Source of the DNA: a candidate division FCPU426 bacterium
GTDB taxonomy: Bacteria; Oederibacteriota; Muellerivitia; Muellerivitales; Muellerivitaceae
DNA length: 64,000 nucleotides
Direction of reading: 5' to 3'
Assembly (NCBI GenBank): GCA_963771075.1
Contig: CAVYSE010000001.1
Span: 1-64,000, forward strand
Both the position numbers and the translations under genes were made by a program. The notes under the pieces were generated by a model. The model saw only the letters and a list, made by a program, of their open reading frames with translations, had not been told where the DNA came from and ran no database searches. Positions 1 through 53,021 of this stretch are shown in pieces; the stretch's first letter is position 1, and each line of letters begins with the position of its first letter.

Positions 1-97
1 ATTGTTTCGTGGGATAAAGAACCCTGACAATAAACCTTTTTTTGTCACCTATTCCTATATGATTCATGCTATTGACCCATCTAGCCCCTTCTGTTAG

Positions 98-1297
<1,200 letters not shown>

Positions 1298-1413
1298 TTT
1301 AATCAACCAGTCATTCAAGCCGCGGGTGAAACCATGGATCCCAGAACCCAAAAAAGGGTGAGCCGAAAAGGGGTTGGGGTTTTGTCCGCGGCTTTTCTTT
1401 TGAGGCGGTCTTC

Positions 1414-1888
1414 ATGGTGATGCATCCGGCTTTGTGGTGGGCGGTCGTGGCCCTGGTTTTTTTCATATTGGAAATTTCCACCGCCTCCTTTTTCTTTTTG
1501 TGGATCGGGATGGGCGCCCTGGTGACCGTGGTGGTTGCCTTTGTCCAGGTACCGGTTTGGGTCGAATACACCGTTTTCGCGGTTTCATCCGTGCTTCTGG
1601 TCGCGATCAGCCGGCGATGGGCGGGAAAACTTTCCGGCAAGTCTACGCAGGTTGCGAATGTGGATGCTCTGATTGGGAAAAAGGGGCAAGTGACAAAGGT
1701 CTACCCTCAAACCCCATGGCAAGGATATGCCAAGTTTAGCGGGGAAATCTGGAGGGTCAGAAAACAAGGGAGAGGTTCCCCTGCGGCTGGAGGAGGAAAT
1801 CCGGGTCGTGGCCTTGAGGTCCAATGTTTTATGGGTGGAGCCGGCCGAGGATGGGACGCCGGAAATCAAAAACGAAAGCAAGCTCTAA
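1414..1888 (+). CDS. NfeD-like membrane protein with a +1 frameshift near 1759
   Basis: Hydrophobic N-terminus, LIGKKGQV..GEIWRV; +1 frame continues ENKGEVPLRLEEEIRVVALRSNVLWVEP to TAA 1888; lies upstream of an SPFH gene. Confidence 0.85.
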
Positions 1889-1942
1889 CACCTAACGCTG
1901 GGTGCGGGAGCCGAAACCCAATTGTCGAAAAGGAGCACCCCG

Positions 1943-2866
1943 ATGGAAATCTCTGGTTTTGTACTGTTTGTTTTGGTTCTTTTCGCCTTGATTTACGCAT
2001 CCCGCGCAATTCGTATTGTCCGGCCCTTTGAGAAGGGATTGATTGAGCGCCTGGGCAGGTTCACCCGTACCGCCGATTCGGGCCTGACCGTACTTTTTCC
2101 CCCCTTCGAGAATATGCGTAAAGTCGACATGCGCGAGCAGGTCATTGAAGTGCCTCCCCAGGAAGTGATCACCAAGGACAATGTGGTCGTGACGGTGGAC
2201 GCCATCATTTATTTCCACGTCAGCGATCCCTTTAAGGTGGTCTATAACGTGGCCCGGTTCGAAATGGCGGCCTTGAAGTTGGCCCAGACTAACCTGCGTA
2301 ATACCATCGGCGAACTGGACCTGGACCAGACCCTCAATAGCCGTGAGCGTATCAATACCCAGCTTCGGGAAATCATGGATGAGGCCACCGACAAATGGGG
2401 CGTGAAGGTGACGCGGGTCGAGATTCAAAAGATCGACCCTCCTAACGATATCGTAAGCGCCATGAGCGCCCAAATGAAGGCGGAACGCACCAAGCGCGCC
2501 GCCATCATCGAGGCGGAAGGCATCAAGCAGGCCGCCATCACCAAGGCGGAAGGGGAAAAGCAATCCGCGATTTTGAAGGCTGAGGGTGAGGCGGGCGCCA
2601 TTGAGCGCGTCGCGACCGCCAATAAATTCCAGAAGATCGCCCTCGCGGAGGGCGAATCCCAGGCTATCATCACGGTTTTTAAGGCGATCCATGACGGGAA
2701 CCCGACCCAGGATCTGTTGGCGTTGAAATACATGGAAATGCTGGGCACGGTGGCGGATGGACAGGCCACCAAGATATTCCTGCCGTTGGAAGCCTCCGGC
2801 ACCCTGGGGGCCTTGAGCGCCATCGCGGAGGCTTTCAAGACGGACCCGAAAGCGAAGCAAAAGTAA
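1943..2866 (+). CDS. SPFH/stomatin-like (QmcA-type) protein
   Basis: VPPQEVITKDNV, KWGVKVTRVEI and QMKAER motifs; AAGGAG RBS. Confidence 0.95.
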   Translation: MEISGFVLFVLVLFALIYASRAIRIVRPFEKGLIERLGRFTRTADSGLTVLFPPFENMRKVDMREQVIEVPPQEVITKDNVVVTVDAIIYFHVSDPFKVVYNVARFEMAALKLAQTNLRNTIGELDLDQTLNSRERINTQLREIMDEATDKWGVKVTRVEIQKIDPPNDIVSAMSAQMKAERTKRAAIIEAEGIKQAAITKAEGEKQSAILKAEGEAGAIERVATANKFQKIALAEGESQAIITVFKAIHDGNPTQDLLALKYMEMLGTVADGQATKIFLPLEASGTLGALSAIAEAFKTDPKAKQK

Positions 2867-2946
2867 GGGAAGTTATTTCAGGGGAGAAGGGAACTTAATC
2901 AAGGTCCCGGTTGTGTTTGAATCTATCTCTTGGGAAAGGATGACAG

Positions 2947-4152
2947 ATGGCCAGCTATAACAAAATGAGCGTGGAAGATATCAACCCCTCGGGGAAGAGG
3001 ATTTTCGTAAGGGTTGATTTTAATGTTCCCCAGGACGAGCAGTTAAAGATCACGGACGATACCCGTATCCGGGAATCGCTTAAGACAATCCAATATTTGG
3101 CTGACAAGGGTGGACGGGTGATCCTTTGTTCCCATCTCGGCCGTCCGAAGGGGAAGAAGAACGAGAAATACAGTTTGAAGCCCGTGGCGTCCAGGCTTTC
3201 GGAACTATTGGGCAAGAATGTGCTGATGATGCCGGATTGCATCGGGGACGCGGTGAAAGCCGAGATCGGGAAAATGAAAAATGGGGATGTGGCTCTCCTT
3301 GAAAACGTCCGCTTTTACAATGAAGAAGAGGGGAACGATCCCGCCTTCGCGAAACAACTTGCCGATCTGGCGGAAGTTTATGTGAATGACGCCTTTGGCA
3401 CGGCCCACCGGGCTCATGCCTCCACCGAGGGCGTGACGAAGTACTTGAAACCCTGCGCTGCTGGATTTTTGATGATGAAGGAAATCAAGTACCTGGGCGG
3501 CGCCGTTTCTAACCCGGGCCGTCCCTTTGTCGCCATCATCGGCGGTGCCAAGATCTCGGGGAAGATCGATGTCATCTCGAACCTCATGAACTTGGCCGAC
3601 ACGGTCATCGTGGGTGGGGGAATGGCCTATACTTTTTTCAAGTCCGAGGGTTACGAGGTTGGGAAATCCCTTTTGGAAGCCGAAAAGGTGGATTTGGCGA
3701 GGGAAACCCTGGCAAAATCCAAAGCCATCCATAAACCATTACTCCTTCCCGTCGACAATGTCATCGCGCAAGATCTGAAGGAAGGGGTTCCCACGAAAGT
3801 GGTGGCTTCCAACCAGATCCCAGCCGATTGGGAAGGGTTGGATGTGGGGCCCGAAACCCTAAAAAAATACCGCGAGGTGATCTCGAAAGCCAAGACCATC
3901 TTCTGGAACGGCCCCGTGGGGGCCTTTGAGGTGAAGCCTTTCGACAAGGGCACCAAGGAAGTGGCCTTGATGATGGCGGAAGCCACGGGCCGCGGAGCGG
4001 TCACCATCGTGGGAGGCGGGGATTCGGTTGCCGCTGTCACGCAGATGGGCCTGTCTGACAAGATGTCCCACGTCTCCACGGGTGGGGGAGCTTCCCTGGA
4101 ATTTATGGAAGGGAAGGTTTTGCCAGGAATTGCAGCACTAACAGACAAGTAA
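2947..4152 (+). CDS. pgk: phosphoglycerate kinase
   Basis: RVDFNVP, DAFGTAHRAHAS, STGGGASLE. Confidence 0.98.
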   Translation: MASYNKMSVEDINPSGKRIFVRVDFNVPQDEQLKITDDTRIRESLKTIQYLADKGGRVILCSHLGRPKGKKNEKYSLKPVASRLSELLGKNVLMMPDCIGDAVKAEIGKMKNGDVALLENVRFYNEEEGNDPAFAKQLADLAEVYVNDAFGTAHRAHASTEGVTKYLKPCAAGFLMMKEIKYLGGAVSNPGRPFVAIIGGAKISGKIDVISNLMNLADTVIVGGGMAYTFFKSEGYEVGKSLLEAEKVDLARETLAKSKAIHKPLLLPVDNVIAQDLKEGVPTKVVASNQIPADWEGLDVGPETLKKYREVISKAKTIFWNGPVGAFEVKPFDKGTKEVALMMAEATGRGAVTIVGGGDSVAAVTQMGLSDKMSHVSTGGGASLEFMEGKVLPGIAALTDK

Positions 4153-39478: not shown

Positions 39479-39561
39479 ACCGGGTGCGTTTAGAAAGTTT
39501 CCAAAATCCCGGTTGCGCGGCAGGTAAATTGAAACTGGTATAATCCTGGAATGGAAAAAAA

Positions 39562-40575
39562 GGGTCAGGCCAACACATAACACTTAAAAAACAATTCGGT
39601 ATTTGATAAGATTCTGCCATGCCCCGAGCAAAAAGAATCCATTACGAAGGCGCGGTTTATCACGTCACTTCCCGGGGGAATGAACGAAGAAAGATCGTGT
39701 TTGACGATTCAGACCGTGGTTTATTCCTAAAAATACTCGCCGAAGTCGTGGAAGAACATCACCTGCATTGTCATGCTTGGGTATTGATGGACAATCACTA
39801 TCATTTGTTGTTTGAAACCCCGGCCGCCAATCTTTCCACCGCCATGAAGCATTTAAATGGGCTTTATACCCAAAGGTTCAATCGAAAAAGACACCGAGTA
39901 GGACATTTGTTCCAAGGCCGGTTTAAGGCCATCCACGTCGACAAGGAAAGTTATTAGAAGGAATTGTGTAGGTATGCGGTCTTAAACCCGGTAAGGGCCA
40001 AAATGGCGAAGCATCCGAAAGAATGGAAATGGAGCCGTTATCGGCCTACGGCAGGTATTGAGAAGGCCCCGTCTTGGTTGGAAACGAAGTGGTTATTAGG
40101 ATTATTCGATAAAAGGTTAGATACGGCCCAAAAGGCCTATCGAGAGTTCGTGGACGATGGGCTCCAAGGGGGAACCAGCCCTTGGGATGAGTTGAGGCAT
40201 CAGGTTTATTTGGGGAAAGATGAATTTTTGGAAAAGATGAAGGGCCTGATATCGAAAAAAGAAAACATGGATATGCCGAAATACCAAAAGAAAATCATGC
40301 ATCCACCGGTGGAGAAGGTATTGGCGAAGGTGGCGGAAGTTTATGGCGTGAAGAAGGAAGCAATCATAAAAAGCCGAAAGAAGGGAAATGAAGTGAGGGA
40401 TGTAGCGATCTATTTGCTGAAGAAAACGGCTGGAATAAGCTCAAAAGAAACGGCGAAGGTGCTGGGGGTGAGTTCGTCGGCGATTGGGAACCGATGGGCG
40501 GTGATAAAAATGCGCATGGAGAAAGACCGGCAATTGGAGAAAATGATCCGTAAGTGTCAAGTGTTGGCCTGACCC
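39562..40575. mobile_element. Y1/RAYT-like element bounded by 25-bp inverted repeats
   Basis: GGGTCAGGCCAACACATAACACTTA (39562-39586) vs reverse complement of 40551-40575, 23/25 identical. Confidence 0.8.
39619..40572 (+). pseudogene. HUH Y1 tyrosine transposase (RAYT/IS200-like) with C-terminal HTH; in-frame TAG at 39955
   Basis: YHVTSRGN, LMDNHYHL, GHLFQGRFK, RYAVLNPVRA. Confidence 0.9.
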
Positions 40576-40774
40576 CATTTTTTTTGTTTTTTTGCGAAAA
40601 CATCCAACCTCGAATACCATCGTCATTCTTTAGGATTAAATTCTCCCGGATGTTCTCCCAATGAAACCCCCGCCCGTTTTTTGAGTGCGGGCGCTACAAA
40701 ATGGTTCTTGCCACCCATTCAATGGATGGCGCCGATTTCTACTAAAGTTGCACACCATCCTTTTTGCGAGGGCC

Positions 40775-42502
40775 ATGTGCAGGCTTAAATGGCGTCCCCA
40801 GGTTTTTGCCGACATGGTCGGGCAAGAACACATTACCCGCTCTTTGCAGAACGCCATGAAGGCCGAGCGCGTGGCCCATGCTTACATCTTTGCCGGACCC
40901 CGTGGCGTGGGTAAGACCACTACCGCCCGCATCTTTGCCAAAGCCCTCAACTGCCGCGACCTGAAGAACGGTGAACCCTGCAACGTTTGCGACCTTTGCC
41001 AGGATGTGAACCAAGGGTCTTCGATGGACGTGATCGAGATCGATGCTGCTTCTTTCAACGGTGTGGACGATATCCGCAGCCTGCAAGAAACCGTCGCAAC
41101 CGCCCCCTCCAAGGCTAAATATAAGGTCTATATCTTTGACGAAGCACACCGGATCACCAAACAAGCCTTTGACGCCTTCTTGAAGACCCTGGAAGAGCCG
41201 CCCGCGCATGTCATCTTCATTTTGGCTTCGACTGAAATCCACCAGTTCCCCGCCACCGTCCAGTCCCGCTGCCAACGCTTCGAGTTCCGCGCGATGGGCA
41301 TGGATACCCTGGTCAAGCAATTGCGACGCATTACCGACGCTGAAGAGATCAAGATCGACGACAAGGGCCTCTATCAGATCGCTCGGGCCGCCCGCGGTTC
41401 CATGCGCGACAGCCAAAGGACCTTGGACCAGGTCGTGGCCTTCTCAGGAAAAGAAGTCAAAGCCGAAGATATCGCTATTGCCCTCGGCACCATTGAAGAA
41501 GAGGTTTATCTCAAGCTGGTCGAAGCCGCGGTGAACCAAGACGCTCCCTCCGCTTTGACCGTGACCAAGGCCGTCATCGATGGCGGCAAGGACCTGGAAC
41601 ATTTCTACGCCGGTTTGCTCGAAACCTTCCGCCACTTAGCGGTGGCCAAGGCTTATCCCGCTTCCGCTGCTCAATTCATTTCCCTGTCCGGCGAAGAAGT
41701 CGAAAAACTCGTGAAGTTCTCTTCCCAAATGGACGAGACCCAGATCCTCTCCTCCTTGCGTCTTCTCATTGAGCAAGAATGGGCCCTGCGCCATTCGAAC
41801 AACCCGCAGATCGTTCTAGAAACCGTCGTTTTGGAATTGTCCCATTTAAAACAGCTCACTTCGGTGAATGCTTTGTTGAAGCAGACCGAAGGCGGCGCGG
41901 CGCCGGTCTTGAACAACCCTAAACCCGCCATAGTTGCGCCCCGGCCAGCCGCTCCCATTGCCGCTCCTGCCTCGACCCCGACCTATTCTGCACCCGCCGC
42001 GCCTAAGGCTGCGGTTGTCATGGAAGGTGAGCCCGTATTAGCTGTTGATGAAATAGAAGAACCGATCGAGGCTGAAAGCAGCCCGGAGATGGCCAAGCTG
42101 AAATCCCAATGGCAAGAATTGTTGGAAAAGGTCGGCGCCAAGAACGCCACGATCAAAGCTGTCTTGAACGACACTCATCCGAAAAGCATCAAAGACGGCG
42201 TCTTAACCTTGTCCTGTAAAGGTCCCTTTCACTTCGACAAGCTGTCCGTTGCCGAGAACAGGGCTATTGTTGAAGGCATCATTTAAGAATTGCTGGGGTT
42301 GAAGCTCACCATAGTGCCCTTGGCGCCGCAAACCACTAAACCCGCCGCCGGGGATAAACCCACCATGCGGTCCCCCAAGTCGATGTCCACCGCCAAGGTG
42401 GATGTGAAAGAGATCGAGAAGGACGAGCCCGTTGTGGCCGCCGCCATGAAACTTTTTGGCGCCAAGGTCGTCGAGGTCAAACGCAACAACCCTTCAAAGT
42501 AA
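40775..42502 (+). pseudogene. dnaX: DNA polymerase III gamma/tau, 5'-truncated at the repeat, in-frame TAA at 42284
   Basis: LKWRPQ starts at the first base after the repeat; GPRGVGKTT, EIDAAS, LKTLEEPP, SRCQ, GSMRD. Confidence 0.92.
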
Positions 42503-42511
42503 AAAGCCGTT

Positions 42512-44218
42512 TCAAGATCCATTTTGCGAGTGAATCGAAAAACCGCTGAAGGCTCCGCATTTAAAGACCAATCGCGCGTAGATCTTCTTGTGAAAATTCT
42601 CCAGAACATACTGGTAGTAACGCAACCCCTCCCCGGTCGAGCAAATCACCAATACCCGCGGATTGTCCACTGCGTCCCGAAGAGGTTCTTTCACTCCAAA
42701 ACTTTCCAAACCATTCAAACTGGCCGGACTGGTCTGTGAAAAAGAAGATATCCAAAGATGAAAGGGCCGCAGACACTCGAGGTCATCGAAAGCACCAAAG
42801 CCTTCCAATGGGAACTGCCAGATCACATAAAGCCGATCAGATCGAGGCTGAGCGTCAATGAGATAGTCATGAAGGGTTTGTTGAGCATCCTGCCGCTGTC
42901 GGGCTTGTTGGTAATAACCTTTTAAATTCGGGAAACAAAGGATCAAAGCCGCTGCCAATACCGCGCCTTTTCCCCAAGAGACCAGATCTCTCCCCGTTTT
43001 AAAAGACTCTCCTTCGACGAGAGCCCAGCTCAATGAAAAGGCCAGCACCGGTAAAGTGACCCGGTCCGGCGCCCGCAAAAGATAGATCAGTCCCACGAAC
43101 AGAAGGAGTGTCCACAAGAACTGAGCAAGAAGGAATTTTCTCGCGGACGAAGAACAAAAAAGACCCAATATCAGGAGCGCCAAGATCATCCGCAGGTCCC
43201 AATCAGATAGCACCAATTCTTCTAAGCTGTGGAACGAAGCGGTCTTCCCTTCGGAACTCCATCGGGGAAAAGAAGCCCCGATCTTGCGAAAAGCTTCTAA
43301 GTTGAACTTTGCCGGGTCGGTATAATACCAATTCTTAAAAAGCCAAAGGTCGTTCTCAGTCCACCCCGCCGCGTCAAAGACCGGTTTGGTTTGGGCCGTA
43401 TAAAAAGGAACATGGTAGTCCTGAAGTTCTACCCGAGCCTGGTCAAAGTCGCGGTATTGCCGCCAAGCGGGATCGTTCTGGAACCAAAAGAAATGGAACA
43501 GTCCTAAGACCAATAACCCCGCTCCTATCAGGATAGGGAAGCCTTTTTTCTTAGCAATGAACTCCCGCCACTGAGGGTCTGAGAGACAAGAGATCCAAAG
43601 AGGAAGCGCGAGCACGAATGCCAGTGCTAATGAATCCATTCGGATCAAAGCGGAGAGCCATAAGAGGACCGTCCCAGTGACGAGTGATCCATTCGAAGGT
43701 TTTTCTTGGCCATCCCGGCCGGACAACAGGAAAATAAAAAGTCCCGCTTCGGCGGCCAATAGGGCCGTGATGGTGAACTGAAGAAAAACAAAAAAGAGGA
43801 AATAAACGCAGACCCACGCGATGGTGAAAAGGAGAACTCGTCCCCACACCAAAGCCTTTCGCAGTGAAAGCCAAAGAACGGCCCACAAAGCGCCGAACTG
43901 GGTCAGGCAGAGGAACCAGCCGTACCAAGGAAAGGTCTGCCGCCAGCGATAAAGCTCCCGCAAAAAGTAGCCCAAAAGAACGTTGGAGTAACCGATAAAA
44001 GGTGAAGCCTGGCCCGAAGCATTGATGCCTTTGACCGCCAGGACCTTGAAAATGTCATCGTTGACCAGGAAGAATGGCTTGATAAAAAACAATTGGATGC
44101 TGAAGAGGATTAGCGTTATTGTGAACGACGCCAACGCGGGGTTGTCGCCGAAAACCCGCGAAGGTCGGTTCTCGGCCTTTGCGGCAAGAGGATGTTTGGG
44201 TTGAGAAAGACGGGGCAT
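42512..44218 (-). CDS. polytopic membrane protein, possibly GT-C-like
   Basis: Many TM segments, VNDD after the first TM; TAAAAT 7 nt before ATG 44218. Confidence 0.75.
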   Translation of the reverse strand: MPRLSQPKHPLAAKAENRPSRVFGDNPALASFTITLILFSIQLFFIKPFFLVNDDIFKVLAVKGINASGQASPFIGYSNVLLGYFLRELYRWRQTFPWYGWFLCLTQFGALWAVLWLSLRKALVWGRVLLFTIAWVCVYFLFFVFLQFTITALLAAEAGLFIFLLSGRDGQEKPSNGSLVTGTVLLWLSALIRMDSLALAFVLALPLWISCLSDPQWREFIAKKKGFPILIGAGLLVLGLFHFFWFQNDPAWRQYRDFDQARVELQDYHVPFYTAQTKPVFDAAGWTENDLWLFKNWYYTDPAKFNLEAFRKIGASFPRWSSEGKTASFHSLEELVLSDWDLRMILALLILGLFCSSSARKFLLAQFLWTLLLFVGLIYLLRAPDRVTLPVLAFSLSWALVEGESFKTGRDLVSWGKGAVLAAALILCFPNLKGYYQQARQRQDAQQTLHDYLIDAQPRSDRLYVIWQFPLEGFGAFDDLECLRPFHLWISSFSQTSPASLNGLESFGVKEPLRDAVDNPRVLVICSTGEGLRYYQYVLENFHKKIYARLVFKCGAFSGFSIHSQNGS

Positions 44219-44319
44219 ACCTGGGATTTTATCAAACCCCTCTTCCAGCCTTGCGGTTATGTTGCACACCATCCTTTTTGCGAGGGCCATGTGCAGGAGC
44301 CTGTAATTATTGGATTTTT

Positions 44320-44655
44320 TCAATGTTCAGCCGAATTCGGCGTGATTTGGATAAGTTCAAATGCAGATTCAATGTCAACATCATCTTTCATAGAACTTAG
44401 CGTACCACTGAAAACCGAATCCTCAAAGCACGACCGGCAGAGCGTACTGACAAAAAACTTCTCGGTCTTCTTTGCGAATGTCCCCTTGAATTGTTTCTCG
44501 AGTTTATCCCGTTCTTTTGAATACAATTTCCCGATATACATATTCCGTAAAACCGGCTTGAGACCATAATTCTTGCACCACTGAACCGCCTTGTCCCGAT
44601 GCCGCCAGTTGCGCGTTTCCCACGATACTAGGGTAATGGCATTGAAATTGTTCAT
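44320..44655 (-). CDS. cas2: divergent Cas2-like protein
   Basis: 111 aa, ATGA overlap with cas1, CKNYGL and LCRSC motifs; SWET where Cas2 has YDI. Confidence 0.7.
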   Translation of the reverse strand: MNNFNAITLVSWETRNWRHRDKAVQWCKNYGLKPVLRNMYIGKLYSKERDKLEKQFKGTFAKKTEKFFVSTLCRSCFEDSVFSGTLSSMKDDVDIESAFELIQITPNSAEH

Positions 44656-45662
44656 GATATCGAAAAAAGTTTTTCCGCTCGAAATGGATTGTACTTGCCT
44701 TCCTTTTCAACAAAGTGGCGAGCCAACGCCCTAATCTGGTTATCGATGATCTGCTTAAGAGTATATTGCTTGCCCCGCCATGCCGTCATTTCATTCAACC
44801 GCTTCATGATGGCACCTACCACGACGCTTTTTCCTTCAGGTGATAACAGATATTTACCAACCGCGATTTTTTCAAAATATTTCCGTTGGTTCAGTTTCTT
44901 TTCTATGAAAAGCGGGAAAAGCACCGAGTCGACGATTGGTACGCGGAATTCTTCGACAAGATCGAGCACGAGGGCAGGCTTACCATAGCGTTCACTGTGG
45001 TAGAGGCCGAGATATGGATCAAGACCGACGTAAAGACATGCCCGTTCGACTTCATTGTAAAGGATGCCGTAGCCGTAATTCAGTACGCTGTTAAACTGGT
45101 CTCTGCCTTGTGGTTTACGGCCCGGGAATCTATGGAATTTCTTTAGCCCGCTGAAATATTTGTCAGCGATGTATCCCTCGGTACCAAGGAGTTGCTCCTT
45201 GCCCTTCTCTGAACACGGAACATTGTCCAAGACATCAAAAAGTGTCTGTGCTTGTAAGAGCTCCGTCCCCACATCTTTTTTGTATCGATACGCGAGATAT
45301 CGGAGTAGATCGAGCTGATTAGCGCATTTGCCTCGCACTAATTCTTTCGCGATATTGAACGATCGCTCAAGCGAAGTTGATGCTTCCAGTTGGGCTTTAC
45401 GAAGACTCGCCAGGCCTTTTGGTTCGCTTGAAAATACTCTTCCGATGGGTTTGCCAAATGAACCGAGATAGACGATATCAACATCGTGCTCAATCGCGAG
45501 CTGAACCGCATGAGTCGTGAGCGAGGCCGGCCGAAGTATAACTATTTTCTCCAGTCTATGGATCGGGTATTCTTTTTTCTCTTTAACTTTCGGAAAAGAA
45601 AGGACGATGCGCTCCCCAATTGTGCCGATCTTGGTACCGTAAGTATCAATAAGCAAGTCCAT
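44652..45662 (-). CDS. cas1: CRISPR-associated integrase Cas1
   Basis: LLGTEG, NSVLNYGYGIL, GLDPYLGLYH, LVLDLVEEFR; catalytic E/H/acidic residues present. Confidence 0.96.
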   Translation of the reverse strand: MDLLIDTYGTKIGTIGERIVLSFPKVKEKKEYPIHRLEKIVILRPASLTTHAVQLAIEHDVDIVYLGSFGKPIGRVFSSEPKGLASLRKAQLEASTSLERSFNIAKELVRGKCANQLDLLRYLAYRYKKDVGTELLQAQTLFDVLDNVPCSEKGKEQLLGTEGYIADKYFSGLKKFHRFPGRKPQGRDQFNSVLNYGYGILYNEVERACLYVGLDPYLGLYHSERYGKPALVLDLVEEFRVPIVDSVLFPLFIEKKLNQRKYFEKIAVGKYLLSPEGKSVVVGAIMKRLNEMTAWRGKQYTLKQIIDNQIRALARHFVEKEGKYNPFRAEKLFSIS

Positions 45663-45975
45663 GTGGCCTGTCCCCCAAATTTCGTAAACCATCCTTGTAT
45701 AATTACGTACAATATTTAATAAACCAGCATCTGAAAATATAATTCCTCCAGATATTCTTGATTCGAAACAAAAGCAAAATGATTTGAGCGGAAAAAACAA
45801 ATTTGAAGAAAACCCTACCTTCTTGGCTGTTCCTGGCTGGTAGCTTTGCTTGAAAATGCCCCCAATCTGTTGTATTTTAGCTCCCCTTTCTTTACCTTTA
45901 GCGTGTGGGCCCAAATGTGGGCCTTTTTTTTACCCATGAATAGGAAAACCTGATTCCCGTGTGTGGAGTGAAGAG

Positions 45976-48900
45976 ATGAATAACTCGCCGATAACGCCCA
46001 ACCCCAACGAAAACCTACTCAGCCCCTTTGATATGGGGAAAGATTCCTGCGGCGTGGGTTTCGTGGCGGATATGAAGAACCGCAAAAGCCATGAGATCGT
46101 CCAGCAGGGCGTCGAGATTCTCCTGAACCTTTCCCACCGGGGCGCGTGCGGGTGCGAAACCAATACCGGCGACGGGGCCGGAATCCTGATCCAAATTCCC
46201 GACAAGTTCTTGCGCAAATTCGCCAAAAATTCCGGTTTTGAATTGCCTGTGGCGGGGGATTATGGCGTCGGGGTGGTCTTTTTGCCCAAACGGCCCGACC
46301 ACATTCAATATTGCGAGGAAGTCATTTCGCGCGTGGTGAAAGAAGAAGGCCAAACCATCCTGGGTTGGCGCTTGGTACCCACCGACAATTCCGAAGTGGG
46401 GCCCACGGCCAGGGTCTCCGAGCCCGTCATGAAGCAGGTTTTCATCGGCAAGGGCAAAGACATCAAGAACCAGGACGCTTTCGAGCGCAAACTGTACCTT
46501 ATAAGGAAGCGCATCGAGCATACGGTGGCCGCTTCCATCCTCACCGAAAAGAACCTTTTCTACTTCGCCAGCTTCTCCTGCCGCACCCTCGTTTATAAGG
46601 GCATGCTTACGCCCGGCCAGGTTTCGCCCTATTTCCCCGATTTGAGGGACAAGGACGTCGAATCCGCCTTGGCGCTGGTGCACAGCCGTTTCTCGACCAA
46701 CACCTTCCCCTCGTGGGACCTGGCGCACCCTTTCCGCTATATCGCCCACAACGGCGAAATCAACACCCTGCGGGGCAACATCAACTGGATGCACGCCCGA
46801 GAAGCCCTCTTCGCCAGCGATTACTACACCCCCGACGAAATGAAGAAGCTTTTGCCCATCATTCGGGAAGGGCAATCCGACTCGGCCACCTTCGACAACG
46901 CCCTGGAAATACTGGTGATGGCCGGGCGGCCCCTGCCGCACGCCATGATGATGCTGATTCCCGAGGCCTGGAGCGGTCACGCCACCATGCCCCAATATAA
47001 GAAGGATTTTTACCGCTACCATTCCTGCCTGATGGAACCCTGGGACGGCCCGGCCTCCATCGCCTTCACCGACGGCCGTGTCATTGGCGCGGTGTTGGAC
47101 CGGAACGGTCTCAGACCCTCCCGTTATTACGTGACCAAGGACGACCTGGTCATCATGGCGAGCGAAGTGGGCGTGCTGGAAGTGGAACCTTCGCGCGTGG
47201 CCAAGAAGGGAAGGCTGGAACCCGGAAAGATGTTCCTGATCGACCTGGCGGAAGGCCGGATCATCGACGATTCGGAACTGAAAGAGAAGATTTCCAAGGC
47301 CCACTCCTACGGCGAGTGGCTGCAGGAAAACCTGGTGACCCTGGAGACGCCTGCCCGACGCCCCCCACGTGCCCGAACCGGACCACGACACGGTCTTGAA
47401 GCGCCAAAAGGCCTTCGGTTACACGCACGAGGAGATCAAGATTTTGATGACCCCCATGACGGTTAATGGGGAAGAGCCGGTCGGCGCCATGGGCGACGAC
47501 ACCCCCTTGGCCGTGCTTTCCGACCAGCCGCAAAGCCTTTTCAACTACTTTAAACAGCTCTTCGCCCAGGTCACCAACCCGCCCCTGGACGCTATACGCG
47601 AGGAACTGGTGACTTCGGTGGTCACCACCGTGGGCCCCGAGGGGAACCTGTTGAAACCCTCGCCAGAGAGCTGCCGCCAGATCGAGCTGAAATGCGCGGT
47701 GTTGGACAACGACGAACTGGCCAAATTCACCCACATCAACCACAAGGGGTTCAAATCCGTCTCCATCCCCATCCTCTATAAGGTCTCGGAAGGGGAAGCG
47801 GCCCTGGCGATGTCCATGGAAGACCTGCAAAAGAAAGCCAGCCAAGCCGTGAAGGACGGCTTCCAAATCATCATCCTTTCCGACCGGGGCATGGACCACG
47901 ACCTGGCCCCCATCCCCAGCCTTTTGGCCATTGCCGGGGTGCACCACCACCTGATTCGCAACGGCGAGCGCACCAAGGTGGGCTTGATCATCGAAACGGG
48001 CGAGCCCCGCGAAGTGCACCATTTCGGCCTGCTGTTGGGCTACGGCGCCAACGCCATCAACCCCTACCTGGCCTTCGAGACCCTGGATGACATGATCCGC
48101 CGCAAGATCCTGCCCTCGGACCTCGACCACAAGATGGCCGTGAAGAAATACATCAAGGCCTGCAACAAGGGCATCGTGAAGATCATGTCCAAGATGGGCA
48201 TCTCGACCATCCAGAGCTACCGGGGCGCCCAGATTTTCGAGGCCATCGGCCTGAACAAGGAATTCGTCGACAAGTATTTCACCTGGACCGCCACCCGCAT
48301 CGGCGGCATCGGATTGAAGGAACTGGCGCAGGAACTGGAAAAACGCCACCGCGGCGCCTTCCCCGAGAGGCCCGACCGGGAACTGGATTTGGACTGGGGC
48401 GGCCGCTACCAATGGCGCCGCGACGGGGAAAAGCATCTTTTCAACCCCGAGACCATCCACAAACTGCAAACCTCGGCCAAGACCGGCTCTTACAAGGTCT
48501 ATAAGGAATACGCCCAGGCCGTTAACGACCAGTCGAAGGCCCTCTGCACCTTCCGGGGTCTGTTCGGCTTCAAGAAGGGCAACCCCATCCCCCTGGACCA
48601 GGTGGAACCCGCTAGCGAAATCGTGAAGCGTTTCGCCACCGGGGCCATGAGCTACGGCTCCATCAGCCAGGAAGCCCACCAGACGCTGGCCATCGCCATG
48701 AACCGCCTCGGCGGCAAGTCGAACACCGGCGAGGGCGGCGAGGACGAGGCCCGTTATATCCCGGAACCTAACGGAGACTCGCGCAATTCGGCCATCAAGC
48801 AGGTGGCCTCGGGCCGGTTCGGGGTGACCAGCAATTACCTGGTCAACGCCAGGGAACTGCAGATCAAGATGGCGCAAGGCGCCAAGCCCGGCGAGGGCGG

Positions 48901-50525
48901 GCAGTTGCCCGGCAAGAAGGTTTACCCCTGGATCGCCAAGACCCGTTTTTCGACCCCCTTCGTCCAGCTCATCTCGCCGCCGCCGCACCATGACATCTAT
49001 TCCATCGAGGACCTGGCCCAGCTCATCCACGACCTGAAGAACGCCAACAAGAACGCCCGCATTTCCGTGAAGCTGGTGGCGGAAGTGGGGGTGGGCACGG
49101 TCGCCGCCGGGGTCTCGAAGGCCCACGCGGACCATGTGCTGATCTCCGGCTTTGACGGCGGCACGGGCGCTTCTCCCCTGACTTCCATCAAGCACGCGGG
49201 CATCCCCTGGGAACTGGGGCTGGCCGAGACGCACCAGATTTTGGTCAAGAACCGCCTGCGGGACCGCATCGTGGTGATGACCGACGGACAGTTGAAGACC
49301 GGCCGGGACGTGGCCGTGGCCTGCCTTTTGGGCGCCGAGGAATTCGGTTTCGCCACCGCCGCTTTGGTGGCCGAGGGATGCATCATGATGCGCGTTTGCA
49401 ACCTGGATACCTGCCCCGTCGGGGTCGCCACCCAAAACCCGGAACTGCGCAAGAAGTTCACGGGCAAGCCCGAATACGTGGTGAATTTCATGATGTTCGT
49501 GGCCGAGGAGATGCGCGAGATCATGGCGCAACTGGGTTACAAGACCGTCAACGAGATGGTGGGCCATTCGGATATGCTGGAAACCAACCACGCCATCGCC
49601 CACTGGAAGTCCAAGGGGCTCGACTTCTCCGCCATTTTCCACCGCCCCGCCGAATCGAACCTGGGGCCGGTCTATTGCGTGAACAAGCAGGACCACGGCC
49701 TGGACAAGGCGCTGGATAACGAGGTCTTGATCGAAAAGTGCCGCCCGGCCCTGGACGACAAGAAGCCCGTGAAGTTCGAGACGCCGATTAGAAACATCAA
49801 CCGCACGGTGGGGACCCTGCTGGGCGCCGAGATTTCGCGCAAGTACGGCTCCAAGGGCCTGCCGGACGACACCATCCAGATCACCTTCCACGGCTCGGCG
49901 GGGAACAGCTTTGGGGCCTTCGTGCCCAAGGGGATGACCCTGCGCCTGGAGGGCGACGCCAACGACTACCTGGGCAAGGGATTGTGCGGCGGAAAGATCA
50001 TCGTTTATCCCCCGAAGGACGCCACCTTTACCCCCGAGGAAAACATCCTCGTCGGGCAACGTGCTCCTCTACGGCGCCACCAGCGGGGAAGCCTACCTGC
50101 GCGGCAAGGCCGGGGAACGCTTCTGCGTCCGTAATTCCGGCGTGCACGCGGTGGTGGAGGGCGTGGGCGACCACGGGTGCGAATACATGACCGGCGGCCG
50201 GGTGGTCGTCATCGGGGACACGGGCCGCAATTTCGCGGCAGGCATGAGCGGCGGGATCGCCTACGTGTGGAACAAGACCGGCGATTTCCCGGTGCGCTGC
50301 AACCAGGACATGGTCGATTTGGATCCGTTGGATTCGGAGGACCTGAAGATCGTTTCCGAGATGCTGAGAAAGCACCAGGAATACACCCACAGCCCGGTCG
50401 CGGCCGGATTGCTGAAGGACTGGGAGAAGCATTCGAGGCAGTTCGTGAAGATCTTCCCCAAGGACTACAAGAAGGCCCTGGCGGAACAAAAGAAAGCCGC
50501 CGCCGAAAAAGGCGCGGTGGCGTAA
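45976..50525 (+). CDS. gltB: glutamate synthase large subunit with +1 frameshifts near 47350 and 50055
   Basis: [33 protein letters not shown] and [11 protein letters not shown] across three consecutive frames. Confidence 0.96.
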
Positions 50526-50888: not shown

Positions 50889-52334
50889 ATGGCGAAACCC
50901 ACAGGATTCATGGAAGCGGGACGGGAAACCCCGCACAAAAGGCCCGTAACCGAGCGGGTGAAGGATTGGAAAGAATACACCCTTCCCCCCGAACCCTCCC
51001 ACCTGAAGACCCAGGCCGCCCGCTGTATGGACTGCGGCATCCCCTTCTGCCACATGGGCTGCCCCCTGGGCAACATCATCCCCGACTGGAACGACATGGT
51101 CTACCGCGAGCGATGGAAGGAAGCCATCGAGCGCCTGCACGCCACCAACAATTTCCCCGAGTTCACCGGCCGGCTCTGCCCCGCCCCTTGCGAGAATTCC
51201 TGCACCCTGGCCATGGACGTCTACGACCAGCCGGTGACCATCAAGCAGATCGAGGTTTCCATCATCGACCATGCCTGGAACGAGGGCTGGGTTCGCCCCC
51301 TGCCCAGCGTCAAGAAGACCGGGAAAAAGGTCGCCGTGGTGGGGTCGGGCCCCGCGGGGCTGGCCGCCGCCCAGCAGTTGGCCCGGGTGGGCCATTCGGT
51401 GACGGTGTTCGAGCGCGCGGACCGCGTCGGCGGGCTTTTGCGCTATGGCATCCCCGAGTTCAAGATGGAAAAGCGCCACCTGGACCGCCGTTTGGAGCAA
51501 ATGCGGGCGGAAAGCGTGGAATTCAAGGTGAACGCCAACATCGGCCATAACGTGCCTGTGGAGGACTTAAAGAAGAATTTTGACGCCATTGTGTTGGCCG
51601 GGGGCGCCACCCAGCCCCGCAACCTGCCCGTACCGGGTAGGGAATTGAAGGGCGTTTATTTCGCCATGGAATACCTGACCCAGTCCAACAAGGTCCAGCA
51701 AGGCGACAAGGTCGAGGGCCAGATCATCGCGAAGGACAAGCACGTCATCGTCATCGGCGGCGGGGACACGGGAGCTGACTGTATCGGCACCGCCCATCGC
51801 CAGGGCGCCAAGAGCGTGACCTCCCTTGAGGTTTTGCCCAAGCCCCCTGTTTCCCGCGCGGCGAACAACCCCTGGCCCGAATGGGCCCGGATCTTCCGCG
51901 TGGCGGGAGCCCATGAGGAGGGCGGGGAAATCCTCTATAGCGTTTCCACCAAGCAATTCGAGGGCGAGAACGGCGTGGTCAAGAAATTGAAGGGCGTGAA
52001 GGTGGAATGGATACCGCAGCCTTCCGGCCCCCCCAAGATGCAGGAAGTGGCGGGAAGCGAGTTTGAGTTGCCCGCCGACCTGGTGTTTTTGGCCATGGGC
52101 TTTACCGGCCCGGAGAAGAACCCGCTGTTCGAAAAGATGGGCATCGAGTTGGACCCGCGCTCCAATGTGAAGGCCAACGCCAACAAGATGACCAATGTTC
52201 CCGGCATCTTCGTGGCGGGGGACATGACCCGGGGCCAGTCCCTGATCGTTTGGGCCATCGCCGAGGGCCGCGCCGCGGCCAGGGGAGTGGATCTTTATCT
52301 GATGGGTGAAACGACACTGCCCAGCCCTCTTTAA
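50889..52334 (+). CDS. gltD: glutamate synthase small subunit
   Basis: RCMDCGIPFC, GSGPAG, GGGDTGADC, GQSLIVWAI. Confidence 0.97.
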   Translation: MAKPTGFMEAGRETPHKRPVTERVKDWKEYTLPPEPSHLKTQAARCMDCGIPFCHMGCPLGNIIPDWNDMVYRERWKEAIERLHATNNFPEFTGRLCPAPCENSCTLAMDVYDQPVTIKQIEVSIIDHAWNEGWVRPLPSVKKTGKKVAVVGSGPAGLAAAQQLARVGHSVTVFERADRVGGLLRYGIPEFKMEKRHLDRRLEQMRAESVEFKVNANIGHNVPVEDLKKNFDAIVLAGGATQPRNLPVPGRELKGVYFAMEYLTQSNKVQQGDKVEGQIIAKDKHVIVIGGGDTGADCIGTAHRQGAKSVTSLEVLPKPPVSRAANNPWPEWARIFRVAGAHEEGGEILYSVSTKQFEGENGVVKKLKGVKVEWIPQPSGPPKMQEVAGSEFELPADLVFLAMGFTGPEKNPLFEKMGIELDPRSNVKANANKMTNVPGIFVAGDMTRGQSLIVWAIAEGRAAARGVDLYLMGETTLPSPL

Positions 52335-52550
52335 ATAATTAGATTTAGAGGGAAGGCTGGACATACCCAGTTCTCATATAAATTCACAAATTGAAACTGG
52401 GTGCCCAGCCCTCTTTAATAAATAGATTTAGAGGGAAGGCTGGACATACCCAGTTCTCATATAAATTCACAAATTGAAACTGGGTGCCCAGTCCTCTTTA
52501 ATAAATTGATTTAGAGAGAAGGCTGGACATACACAGTTCTCATATAAATT
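52320..52550 (+). repeat. tandem 83-84-bp repeats starting in the gltD 3' end
   Basis: Units start at 52320, 52404 and 52487; unit 3 resumes at ~52954 after an insertion. Confidence 0.9.
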
Positions 52551-52554
52551 TTAA

Positions 52555-52945
52555 GGGTCGTTCCCGAATTTGCAGATAAAGGGTTTTGAAGTGCTTTTTG
52601 TGGTCTGTCATCGAGAGGAGGCGCCCCAATCGGGGCGGTTGCCGACGTCGCGATCTCAGTTCGATGTTCGTCTTGGCCTTTTTAAAGGCTTTTTTAAACT
52701 GGGATTGTCCATGGGCTAAAGCCCATGGAGGGTTGGCCGAATTTAGGCCAACTACCACAAGCCTCTCGTGAACGTCCGCCTAGCCCCATTTTTCTTTAAG
52801 GGTAAATAAGGAAAATGGGATGATCCCGCATCATCTTTTAAAATTTTCAAAAGGAAATGCGGGATATCGGCGGCCACTCGTCGCAATGACAACCAAATAA
52901 AGCAAGATTTAAAACGGACTCTATCTGCAAATTCAGGAAAGGGGC
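52555..52945. mobile_element. MITE-like insertion with an 8-bp TSD
   Basis: TTCCCGAATTTGCAGATA / TATCTGCAAATTCAGGAA subterminal IR; AATTTTAA at 52547 and 52946. Confidence 0.75.
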
Positions 52946-53021
52946 AATTTTAAAATTGAAACCGGGTGCCCAGCCCTCTTTGATTAGCTCACAGCTAAAA
53001 ACATAGCAGGTTATTTCAATT

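Follow-up and report, generated by a model that had tools for sequence, protein, structure and literature searches.

How did two genes for the adaptation proteins of CRISPR (short palindromic repeats, clustered and regularly interspaced) come to lie beside a pair of identical repeats that are separated by more than three kilobases? The question is raised by the first 64,000 nucleotides of contig CAVYSE010000001.1 (forward strand; assembly GCA_963771075.1; hereafter the window) from a soil bacterium of candidate division FCPU426, whose genome is designated G000. Coordinates are window positions unless a contig (C) or locus (L) label is given. During CRISPR adaptation, Cas1-Cas2 joins the two 3′ ends of a prespacer to the first repeat, one at each edge, and that repeat becomes duplicated on repair. 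Spacer lengths of 26-72 bp are quoted in work on casposons, mobile elements that leave a target-site duplication of 15 ± 2 bp (PMC5137440). An original prediction, made from the letters of the window, proposed that an integrase had inserted a kilobase-scale fragment at a lone repeat, a state between casposon and CRISPR adaptation. Comparison with related genomes indicates that the locus probably encodes a CRISPR-derived Cas1-Cas2 integrase that lacks a length ruler and captures near-random long DNA.

Architecture of the locus

On the minus strand, an intact cas1 (44652..45662; 336 aa) is followed by a variant cas2 (44320..44655; 111 aa), a 22-bp leader that extends from the cas2 stop codon to the first repeat (44298..44319), a leader-proximal 37-nt repeat (44261..44297), an insert or spacer of 3,477 bp (40784..44260), and a distal repeat (40747..40783). 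The two repeats are direct and 100% identical, and identity is lost at the first outside base on both sides of both copies. Each is partly palindromic, with a predicted hairpin of −12.9 kcal/mol (z −2.1). Coordinates and profile matches agree with the layout originally predicted, as does the sharp loss of identity at the repeat ends. The AT-richness ascribed to the two cas genes was likewise borne out, with GC contents of 0.46 (cas1) and 0.44 (cas2) against 0.53 for both insert and genome and 0.60 for the nearby gltB. The upstream end of the module falls within 45663..45742 (minus strand), where identity with copies in other genera ends at about 45700 and with a genome of the same genus at about 45742. 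A scan for promoters and terminators gave a signal at chance level.

Origin of the insert

The insert is collinear over its bases 1-3347 with G015:C24:172361-175714, at 72% nucleotide identity over 3,347 bases. Among 32 genomes of the order, G015, which belongs to another genus of the same family, is the only one that matches nearly the whole insert collinearly. The captured dnaX (40784..42286, plus strand) encodes a protein that is 94% identical to the native DnaX of G015 over 350 aa and is its sister in a tree with 99% support in the Shimodaira-Hasegawa-like approximate likelihood ratio test (SH-aLRT). A second, intact dnaX, sought as a check on the prediction, is present on host contig C11, and its protein is 63.6% identical to the inserted DnaX over 500 aa. 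The other captured gene (42512..44218, minus strand; 568 aa, apparently whole) encodes a membrane protein without a Pfam or NCBIfam match that is 58% identical to the product of the dnaX neighbour in G015, and the gene order is kept. No insertion sequence (IS) element was found within the insert, which recurs at 99-100% identity in sequencing runs of three studies. A search of DNA data listed 11 holding runs, none of them an RNA run that would bear on transcription of the array. On these alignments and the tree, the insert is contiguous chromosomal DNA of a foreign genus, in line with its earlier description as ordinary chromosomal DNA carrying dnaX and a membrane gene.

The captured dnaX is in frame from the first base past the distal repeat and lacks seven N-terminal codons relative to G015, which accords with the shortened start that had been noticed. 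On the plus strand the distal repeat ends in nine bases (40775-40783) that read Met-Cys-Arg in frame with the gene, so that the repeat may supply a start codon for captured dnaX. The assembly contains an in-frame stop at 42284-42286, beyond which the frame continues for 71 codons; since sequencing run X1 has a sense codon at this position, the stop is either an error or a private mutation.

Repeat arrays in the host and its relatives

In the host genome, repeats were counted at up to five mismatches, with the reversed repeat at up to eight mismatches as a control. This genome, which has one such cas1, contains 29 copies on 10 contigs (control, 0), and all 16 neighbouring pairs less than 50 kb apart are co-oriented. 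Seven repeats lie within 3.4 kb on C3 and six across 31 kb on C8. The lone repeat of the original prediction is therefore one of 29, most of which stand in co-oriented runs. In the relatives, G027 holds 11 co-oriented repeats over 53 kb, and inter-repeat gaps reach about 25 and 26 kb in G004. Two repeat pairs depart from the usual co-orientation, being inverted and 109 and 144 bp apart (L251 4724-4906; L235 7253-7470).

Within the order, 9 of the 32 genomes carry the repeat. A Cas1 96-99% identical to that of the window is encoded in 4 of 30 genomes of the same family, representing four genera. Each of the five genomes with this cas1 has 10-30 repeat hits. A sixth genome, where a contig begins within the first bases of cas1, gives 13, another three give one or two, and the remaining 23 give none. 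By these counts the repeat number tracks the presence of this cas1. The possibility had been raised that the repeat is dispersed independently of cas1. It is dispersed, but it is not independent, given 10-30 copies with the gene and mostly 0-2 without it.

A clade of Cas1 proteins without short arrays

Genome and metagenome scans yielded 159 loci, comprising 53 with at least 50% Cas1 identity to the window (the clade), 102 below 40% (the outgroup), and 4 between. Six clade loci have a Cas1 at least 96% identical to that of the window; these are near-copies and hence not independent. The clade is mostly from Patescibacteria, to which the named Cas1 homologues at 55-83% identity belong. A repeat-like site is found 340-444 bp past cas1 in 40 of the 53 clade loci (44 have at least 450 bp of downstream sequence) and in 1 of 102 outgroup loci. 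At least two copies occur in 13 of these 40; the gaps between them number 40 and measure 140-4,242 bp. Diverged repeats are undercounted, as at L077, whose repeat was seen but missed in the count. Short-period arrays accompany none of the 53 clade loci and 51 of the 102 outgroup loci, the nearest of which have periods of mostly 72-76 bp. The homologous loci thus do not show the spacers of 30-40 bp that would have spoken against the prediction.

The repeat differs by up to 15 bases between loci and is near-identical inside each array. Clade leaders measure about 10-40 bp, and most share their final three or four bases. Independent assemblies from many lineages show the same layout, the longest contig being 876 kb. 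In a quick Cas1 tree of 80 of 144 rows, with the outgroup thinned to every third row, a branch supported at 97% (SH-aLRT) has all repeat-bearing rows on the same side. The clade branches from short-spacer CRISPR Cas1 proteins, and the window protein is placed among sequences mostly of the candidate phyla radiation (CPR). Among viral contigs, 87 pattern matches included no relative.

Lengths, sources, and ends of the spacers

A pool of 85 spacers was assembled from 52 gaps shorter than 16 kb (G000 and five relatives) and 33 from eleven other clade loci, after two duplicate loci had been dropped. The median length is 1,340 bp (range 30 bp to 14 kb), and 54 exceed 1 kb. Two are at most 50 bp, 6 measure 51-200 bp, 23 measure 201-1,000 bp, 47 measure 1-5 kb, and 7 are longer. 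Spacers of 30 and 38 bp occur in a G002 array, and in a contig of sequencing run X2 about 16 bases separate two repeats.

For three spacers there is source DNA, free of repeats, that agrees at 99.96-100% from first to last base. A 7,247-bp spacer in G001 is 99.96% identical to G000 C3:402693-409939, where no repeat is found, and the match stops at the repeat edges. Its source is internal to an 11,738-bp block that is 99.9% identical between G000 and G014 and contains no repeat in either genome. The other two are internal pieces as well: a 559-bp spacer of G000 comes from a multicopy transposase element of 1.7 kb, and a 379-bp spacer of G002 from radC. The 11.7-kb block itself (L254 4568-16305), shared by two genera at 99.9%, has a 2.5-kb repeated element at its left end and looks like a recent transfer. 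For most spacers no near-identical source was present in the genomes searched. A donor search across the 32 genomes with the 17-kb and 3.4-kb arrays of G000 and the 10-kb array of G027 returned mostly IS matches and homologues at 70-90% identity. No orthologous arrays sharing spacers were found.

Spacer ends often lie inside genes, among them dnaX, a DDE transposase gene, and those for UvrD, RadC, HerA, and Cas1. Among the cargo (121 open reading frames, ORFs) are cut genes, IS elements, and also complete units, for example a metal-uptake operon, a nitric-oxide-reductase cluster, and a type III restriction-modification pair. Across the 85 spacers no protospacer-adjacent motif (PAM) was found, and terminal inverted repeats (TIRs) are at about chance level (mean of 2.7 matches in 10 end positions). 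One base is biased: G is rare at the third position from both 5′ ends (7/85 and 6/85, or 13/170 against about 23%), with an uncorrected p of about 7e-8 for a position picked post hoc. In G027, spacers overlap each other in pieces that are 99-100% identical, and one spacer is a cut cas1-cas2-leader. Also in G027, two repeats of a different variant lie enclosed by its own repeats (L027 5759-6839; L035 3302-16812; L244; L245). Three successive G014 spacers (L021 4424-8662) are more cassette-like, each holding one whole ORF of 323-370 aa with similar first 60-100 bases.

The integrase proteins and the question of an effector

Cas1 matches TIGR00287 (expectation value, E, 9e-72) and PF01867 (E 1e-66) and scores above the cut-off of none of the subtype models. 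Glu162, His222, and Glu237, which we take to be the catalytic residues, are invariant across 41 aligned clade homologues. Compared with the copy at L065, cas1 shows 48 synonymous and 11 non-synonymous codon differences, as expected of a gene that is under purifying selection; cas2 shows 9 and 12. The nearest relatives of this Cas1 are generic, I-D, I-G, and I-C-like proteins associated with repeats of about 37 nt. In a structure search CRISPR Cas1 proteins were nearer, and chain 6opm, presumably a casposase, was the third-best match.

The small ORF has a weak Pfam match to Cas2 (E 0.006). Its AlphaFold model (predicted local distance difference test, pLDDT, 78.5) has Cas2 chains among the top Foldseek hits (best E 2e-5), and three of the five best matches in a sequence-profile search of the PDB are chains named Cas2. 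As modelled, it is Cas2 by fold. The 27 aligned clade members keep a CxxC motif and a C-terminal aromatic-Glu motif, and a strand-1 position that is usually Asp in Cas2 varies.

Neither a Cas family nor PolB was matched among 35 further ORFs in the window. The same holds for 71 of the 94 ORFs upstream of 23 clade loci. Genome-wide, G000 has no match to PF03787, PF07282, or TIGR01865, in a search that did not extend to Cas10, Cas12a-e, Cas13, or Cas4 and in which PF03787 missed the type I-E genes and is therefore insensitive. A complete, unrelated type I-E system is encoded on C3 (L226 1033-13504), with its own Cas1e, dinD between cas3 and cas8e, and a resolved array of nine 29-nt repeats with short spacers next to an IS30 element. 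Three or four palindromic repeats lie between its cas genes at 3324-3805. Its spacers match none of the 85 long spacers, and elsewhere the window yields one 17-nt match. The locus was originally called effector-less, which describes the module and not the cell.

A model of long-fragment capture

In the model that we favour, Cas1-Cas2 would join both free ends of a long fragment to the edges of the leader-proximal repeat, and joining and repair would duplicate the repeat, building arrays of gene-sized spacers. Fragments could range from tens of bases to tens of kilobases and have nearly any sequence. Equivalent Cas1 sites would hold the two ends, with the middle looped out, an arrangement with which the symmetric bias at base 3 is consistent. 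The variant Cas2 and the lack of Cas4 may remove the length ruler and leave ends untrimmed. Substrates are presumably broken self or incoming DNA. Where a captured fragment carries parts of another array, the model would account for repeats that lie scattered, for cas2 remnants accompanied by leader and repeat, for different repeat variants within one array, and for the cas1-cas2-leader spacer of G027. Selection would retain useful captures; capture looks indiscriminate, so that a benefit is at most putative, though cas1 is under purifying selection.

The predicted insertion of a kilobase-scale fragment is supported by the collinear foreign insert, by kilobase gaps throughout the clade, and by sources with exact edges. 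The intermediate state between casposon and CRISPR adaptation is not. This Cas1 is nearer CRISPR Cas1 proteins, branches from short-spacer ones, and keeps Cas2, and the system thus looks derived from CRISPR adaptation rather than transitional.

Several observations weigh against such capture. Heaviest are that the integration chemistry is deduced from sequence comparison and that the junctions lack a bridging contig among those listed. Contigs of seven sequencing runs were searched for bridges with 31 bases on each side (uncovered stretches counted as no evidence), and none of the contigs listed bridges either junction. The nearest approaches lend weak support: in one X2 contig 10 bases of the repeat run into dnaX, and one X1 contig terminates exactly at 44260. 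Many host repeats are far from any cas1, or beside cas2 remnants alone. In 27 of the 40 repeat-bearing clade loci a single copy lies within the sequence examined, and the loci are related by descent rather than independent. Different sequences follow leader and repeat in several runs, as leader-end polarity would have it, yet such units occupy several loci. Several long spacers contain IS elements, and their lengths are inflated accordingly. The 8.4-kb contig with the G001 array could be mis-binned, which would change the identity of the donor but not the cut-out.

Alternative explanations

Exact source matches and the clade-wide switch in array type count most against the alternatives. It is unlikely that short spacers were written first and were later lengthened by inserted IS elements, by repeats recombining with each other, or by rearrangements that followed half-site integration. 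The 30- and 38-bp spacers of G002, the closely set X2 repeats, and the IS elements inside several spacers would fit such a history, and the overlapping G027 pieces with their cut cas1-cas2-leader point to local reshuffling. Against it, no more than 2 of 85 spacers reach 50 bp or less, the window insert is free of IS elements and collinear with a foreign chromosome, and the source-matched spacers agree end to end with no remnant of a short spacer. A repeat served by another enzyme, as a recombination site or a tiny mobile repeat in the manner of integrons or miniature inverted-repeat transposable elements, with cas1-cas2 as a passenger, would explain why 29 copies on 10 contigs accompany one such cas1, why the module stands behind a 30-bp cassette site in several relatives, and why 6 of 23 clade loci have an Xer-like or serine recombinase directly upstream of cas1. 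We consider this quite improbable. The flanks outside the repeats do not extend into source sequence, so that repeats were not dropped into a chromosome, and no site marks the source cut points. In 40 of 53 loci the repeat follows cas2 at a fixed distance; it varies by up to 15 bases between loci and hardly at all within an array. The upstream recombinases score below the integron-integrase cut-off and are missing from most loci.

Two further explanations carry still less weight. An artefact in which unrelated contigs were joined via the shared 37-nt repeat is very doubtful, even though the repeat forms a branching node in the short-read graph (a 37-nt contig of depth 199) and the junctions lack a bridging contig among those listed. 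A false join would need a repeat on both sides of the dnaX piece in some genome, yet none exists at the closest native locus or anywhere else in that genome; the same assembly resolves the nine-repeat type I-E array; the layout is found in independent assemblies of many lineages; and insert and cas genes have similar depth in run X1. Least credible, and largely refuted, is a casposon-like origin, in which a casposase inserted a kilobase element and the repeat would be its target-site duplication. The resemblance of Cas1 to 6opm, presumably a casposase chain, and its rank of third in the structure search would suit this idea. Casposases do insert kilobase substrates with such a duplication, but casposons need TIRs, encode PolB, and duplicate about 15 bp (PMC5137440). 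The inserts here lack TIRs, do not encode the integrase, and are mutually unrelated; Cas2 is always present, and PolB was found neither in the window nor in the upstream ORFs scanned.

Comparison with known systems

The locus shares with CRISPR adaptation modules an intact Cas1, a partner of Cas2 fold, a leader, and partly palindromic 37-nt repeats identical within the array, as well as unique intervening sequences from foreign or self DNA. The repeat also has the hallmarks of CRISPR repeats in a length within 23-50 nt, a place beside the leader, and identity within an array. It differs in that spacers range from 30 bp to about 26 kb, compared with 26-72 bp (PMC5137440), that neither cas4 nor an effector accompanies the locus, that PAMs are absent, that the leader measures only about 10-40 bp, and that Cas2 is without the conserved acidic residue. 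With casposons it has in common a Cas1-family enzyme, kilobase inserts between direct repeats, and a fixed target site. It is unlike them in lacking TIRs and PolB and in its 37-nt repeat, as opposed to a duplication of about 15 bp (PMC5137440), and also in cargo that is unrelated to the enzyme, in the presence of Cas2, and in tandem arrays of different inserts.

Integrons, with IntI and attI and attC sites, likewise place an integrase beside a growing array of foreign genes parted by a repeated site, and the locus would function as an integron assembled from CRISPR components. The inserts here, however, are not pre-formed cassettes with their own site but begin and end within genes and occur in both orientations, and Cas1 takes the place of a tyrosine recombinase; no site was found at the cut points of spacer sources, in a search made without a covariance model for attC. 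In length, terminal bases, and small-genome hosts, the repeat seems to us to resemble type V-F (Cas12f) repeats of CPR and DPANN, and no PF07282 (Cas12f/TnpB) match was found in G000 or among the upstream ORFs scanned. A separate category is justified because the locus falls outside the definitions of CRISPR arrays, casposons, and integrons alike; its parts are known. A literature search, which did not reach supplements, subscription papers, or patents, found no description of kilobase spacers, and the main text of the 2025 classification, apart from its supplements, is silent in the portion available on long spacers, casposons, and Patescibacteria (PMC12669027). The system is real, clade-wide, and apparently undescribed.

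Possible mobility and neighbourhood of the module

In the host family, the cas1-cas2-leader-repeat unit appears from sequence alignments to travel as a cassette behind a 30-bp palindromic site. In G004, G014, and three copies of G027 it is found some 100 bp upstream of cas1, with flanks that differ beyond it, and in G000 it also precedes cas2 remnants (positions before cas1 or remnants are L065 9898, L066 9898, L067 9898, L075 9898, L022 6371, L043 1763, and L049 179). The host genome has 72 copies, many of them in arrays, and none was found in the window at up to 10 mismatches. The recombinases next to cas1 on its upstream side, seen in 6 of the 23 clade loci, are divergent XerC/D-like (four) or large serine (two) proteins (L081, L084, L145, L155, L087, and L160); a link to dif sites or to module insertion is possible. 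The window encodes no integron integrase, and all seven recombinases near clade loci score below the TIGR02249 cut-off.

The module sits within about 20 kb of extra DNA (about 25500-45800), between the tgt region and gltB, that is absent in G002 and G003. This stretch also holds norB, a hemerythrin gene, a CLC channel gene, and MazE-PIN and MNT-HEPN toxin-antitoxin pairs. A Y1 (IS200/RAYT-like) element with 32-nt inverted ends (39555-40582), its gene broken by a stop at about 39957, lies 165 bp past the distal repeat and has copies about 90% identical on C5 and C21. Loose ends at 40774, 44293, and 44540 (runs X1 and X2) look like termini of one IS that is inserted into the repeat or cas2 in other strains. 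The neighbouring gltB (45961-50134) is in two frames with a break at about 47400, possibly an assembly frameshift, and gltD is followed by three 83-nt tandem copies (52331-52579), with a related piece at 52946.

Implications

Cas1-Cas2 is defined in part by the constant length of its spacers, and a natural clade without this property would reveal how the ruler works and how it is lost. The window locus and its relatives contribute to this source-matched spacers and a traceable donor genus. Such arrays may also be common, as standard CRISPR finders would miss them; one pipeline merges arrays within 200 bp only (PMC5294841).

We lean slightly towards a broader reading, in which the module is a sequence-independent gene-capture machine that takes up any long DNA, up to operons, at a 37-nt site, with a repeat that offers a start codon, an ordered record of uptake, and cassette spread between genera. 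On either reading, it would be a two-protein, site-specific integrase for unmodified kilobase DNA, of use in genome writing and recording. For CPR bacteria and their neighbours it would amount to integron-like transfer, a route of gene acquisition that needs no homology, no cassette sites, and no element ends.

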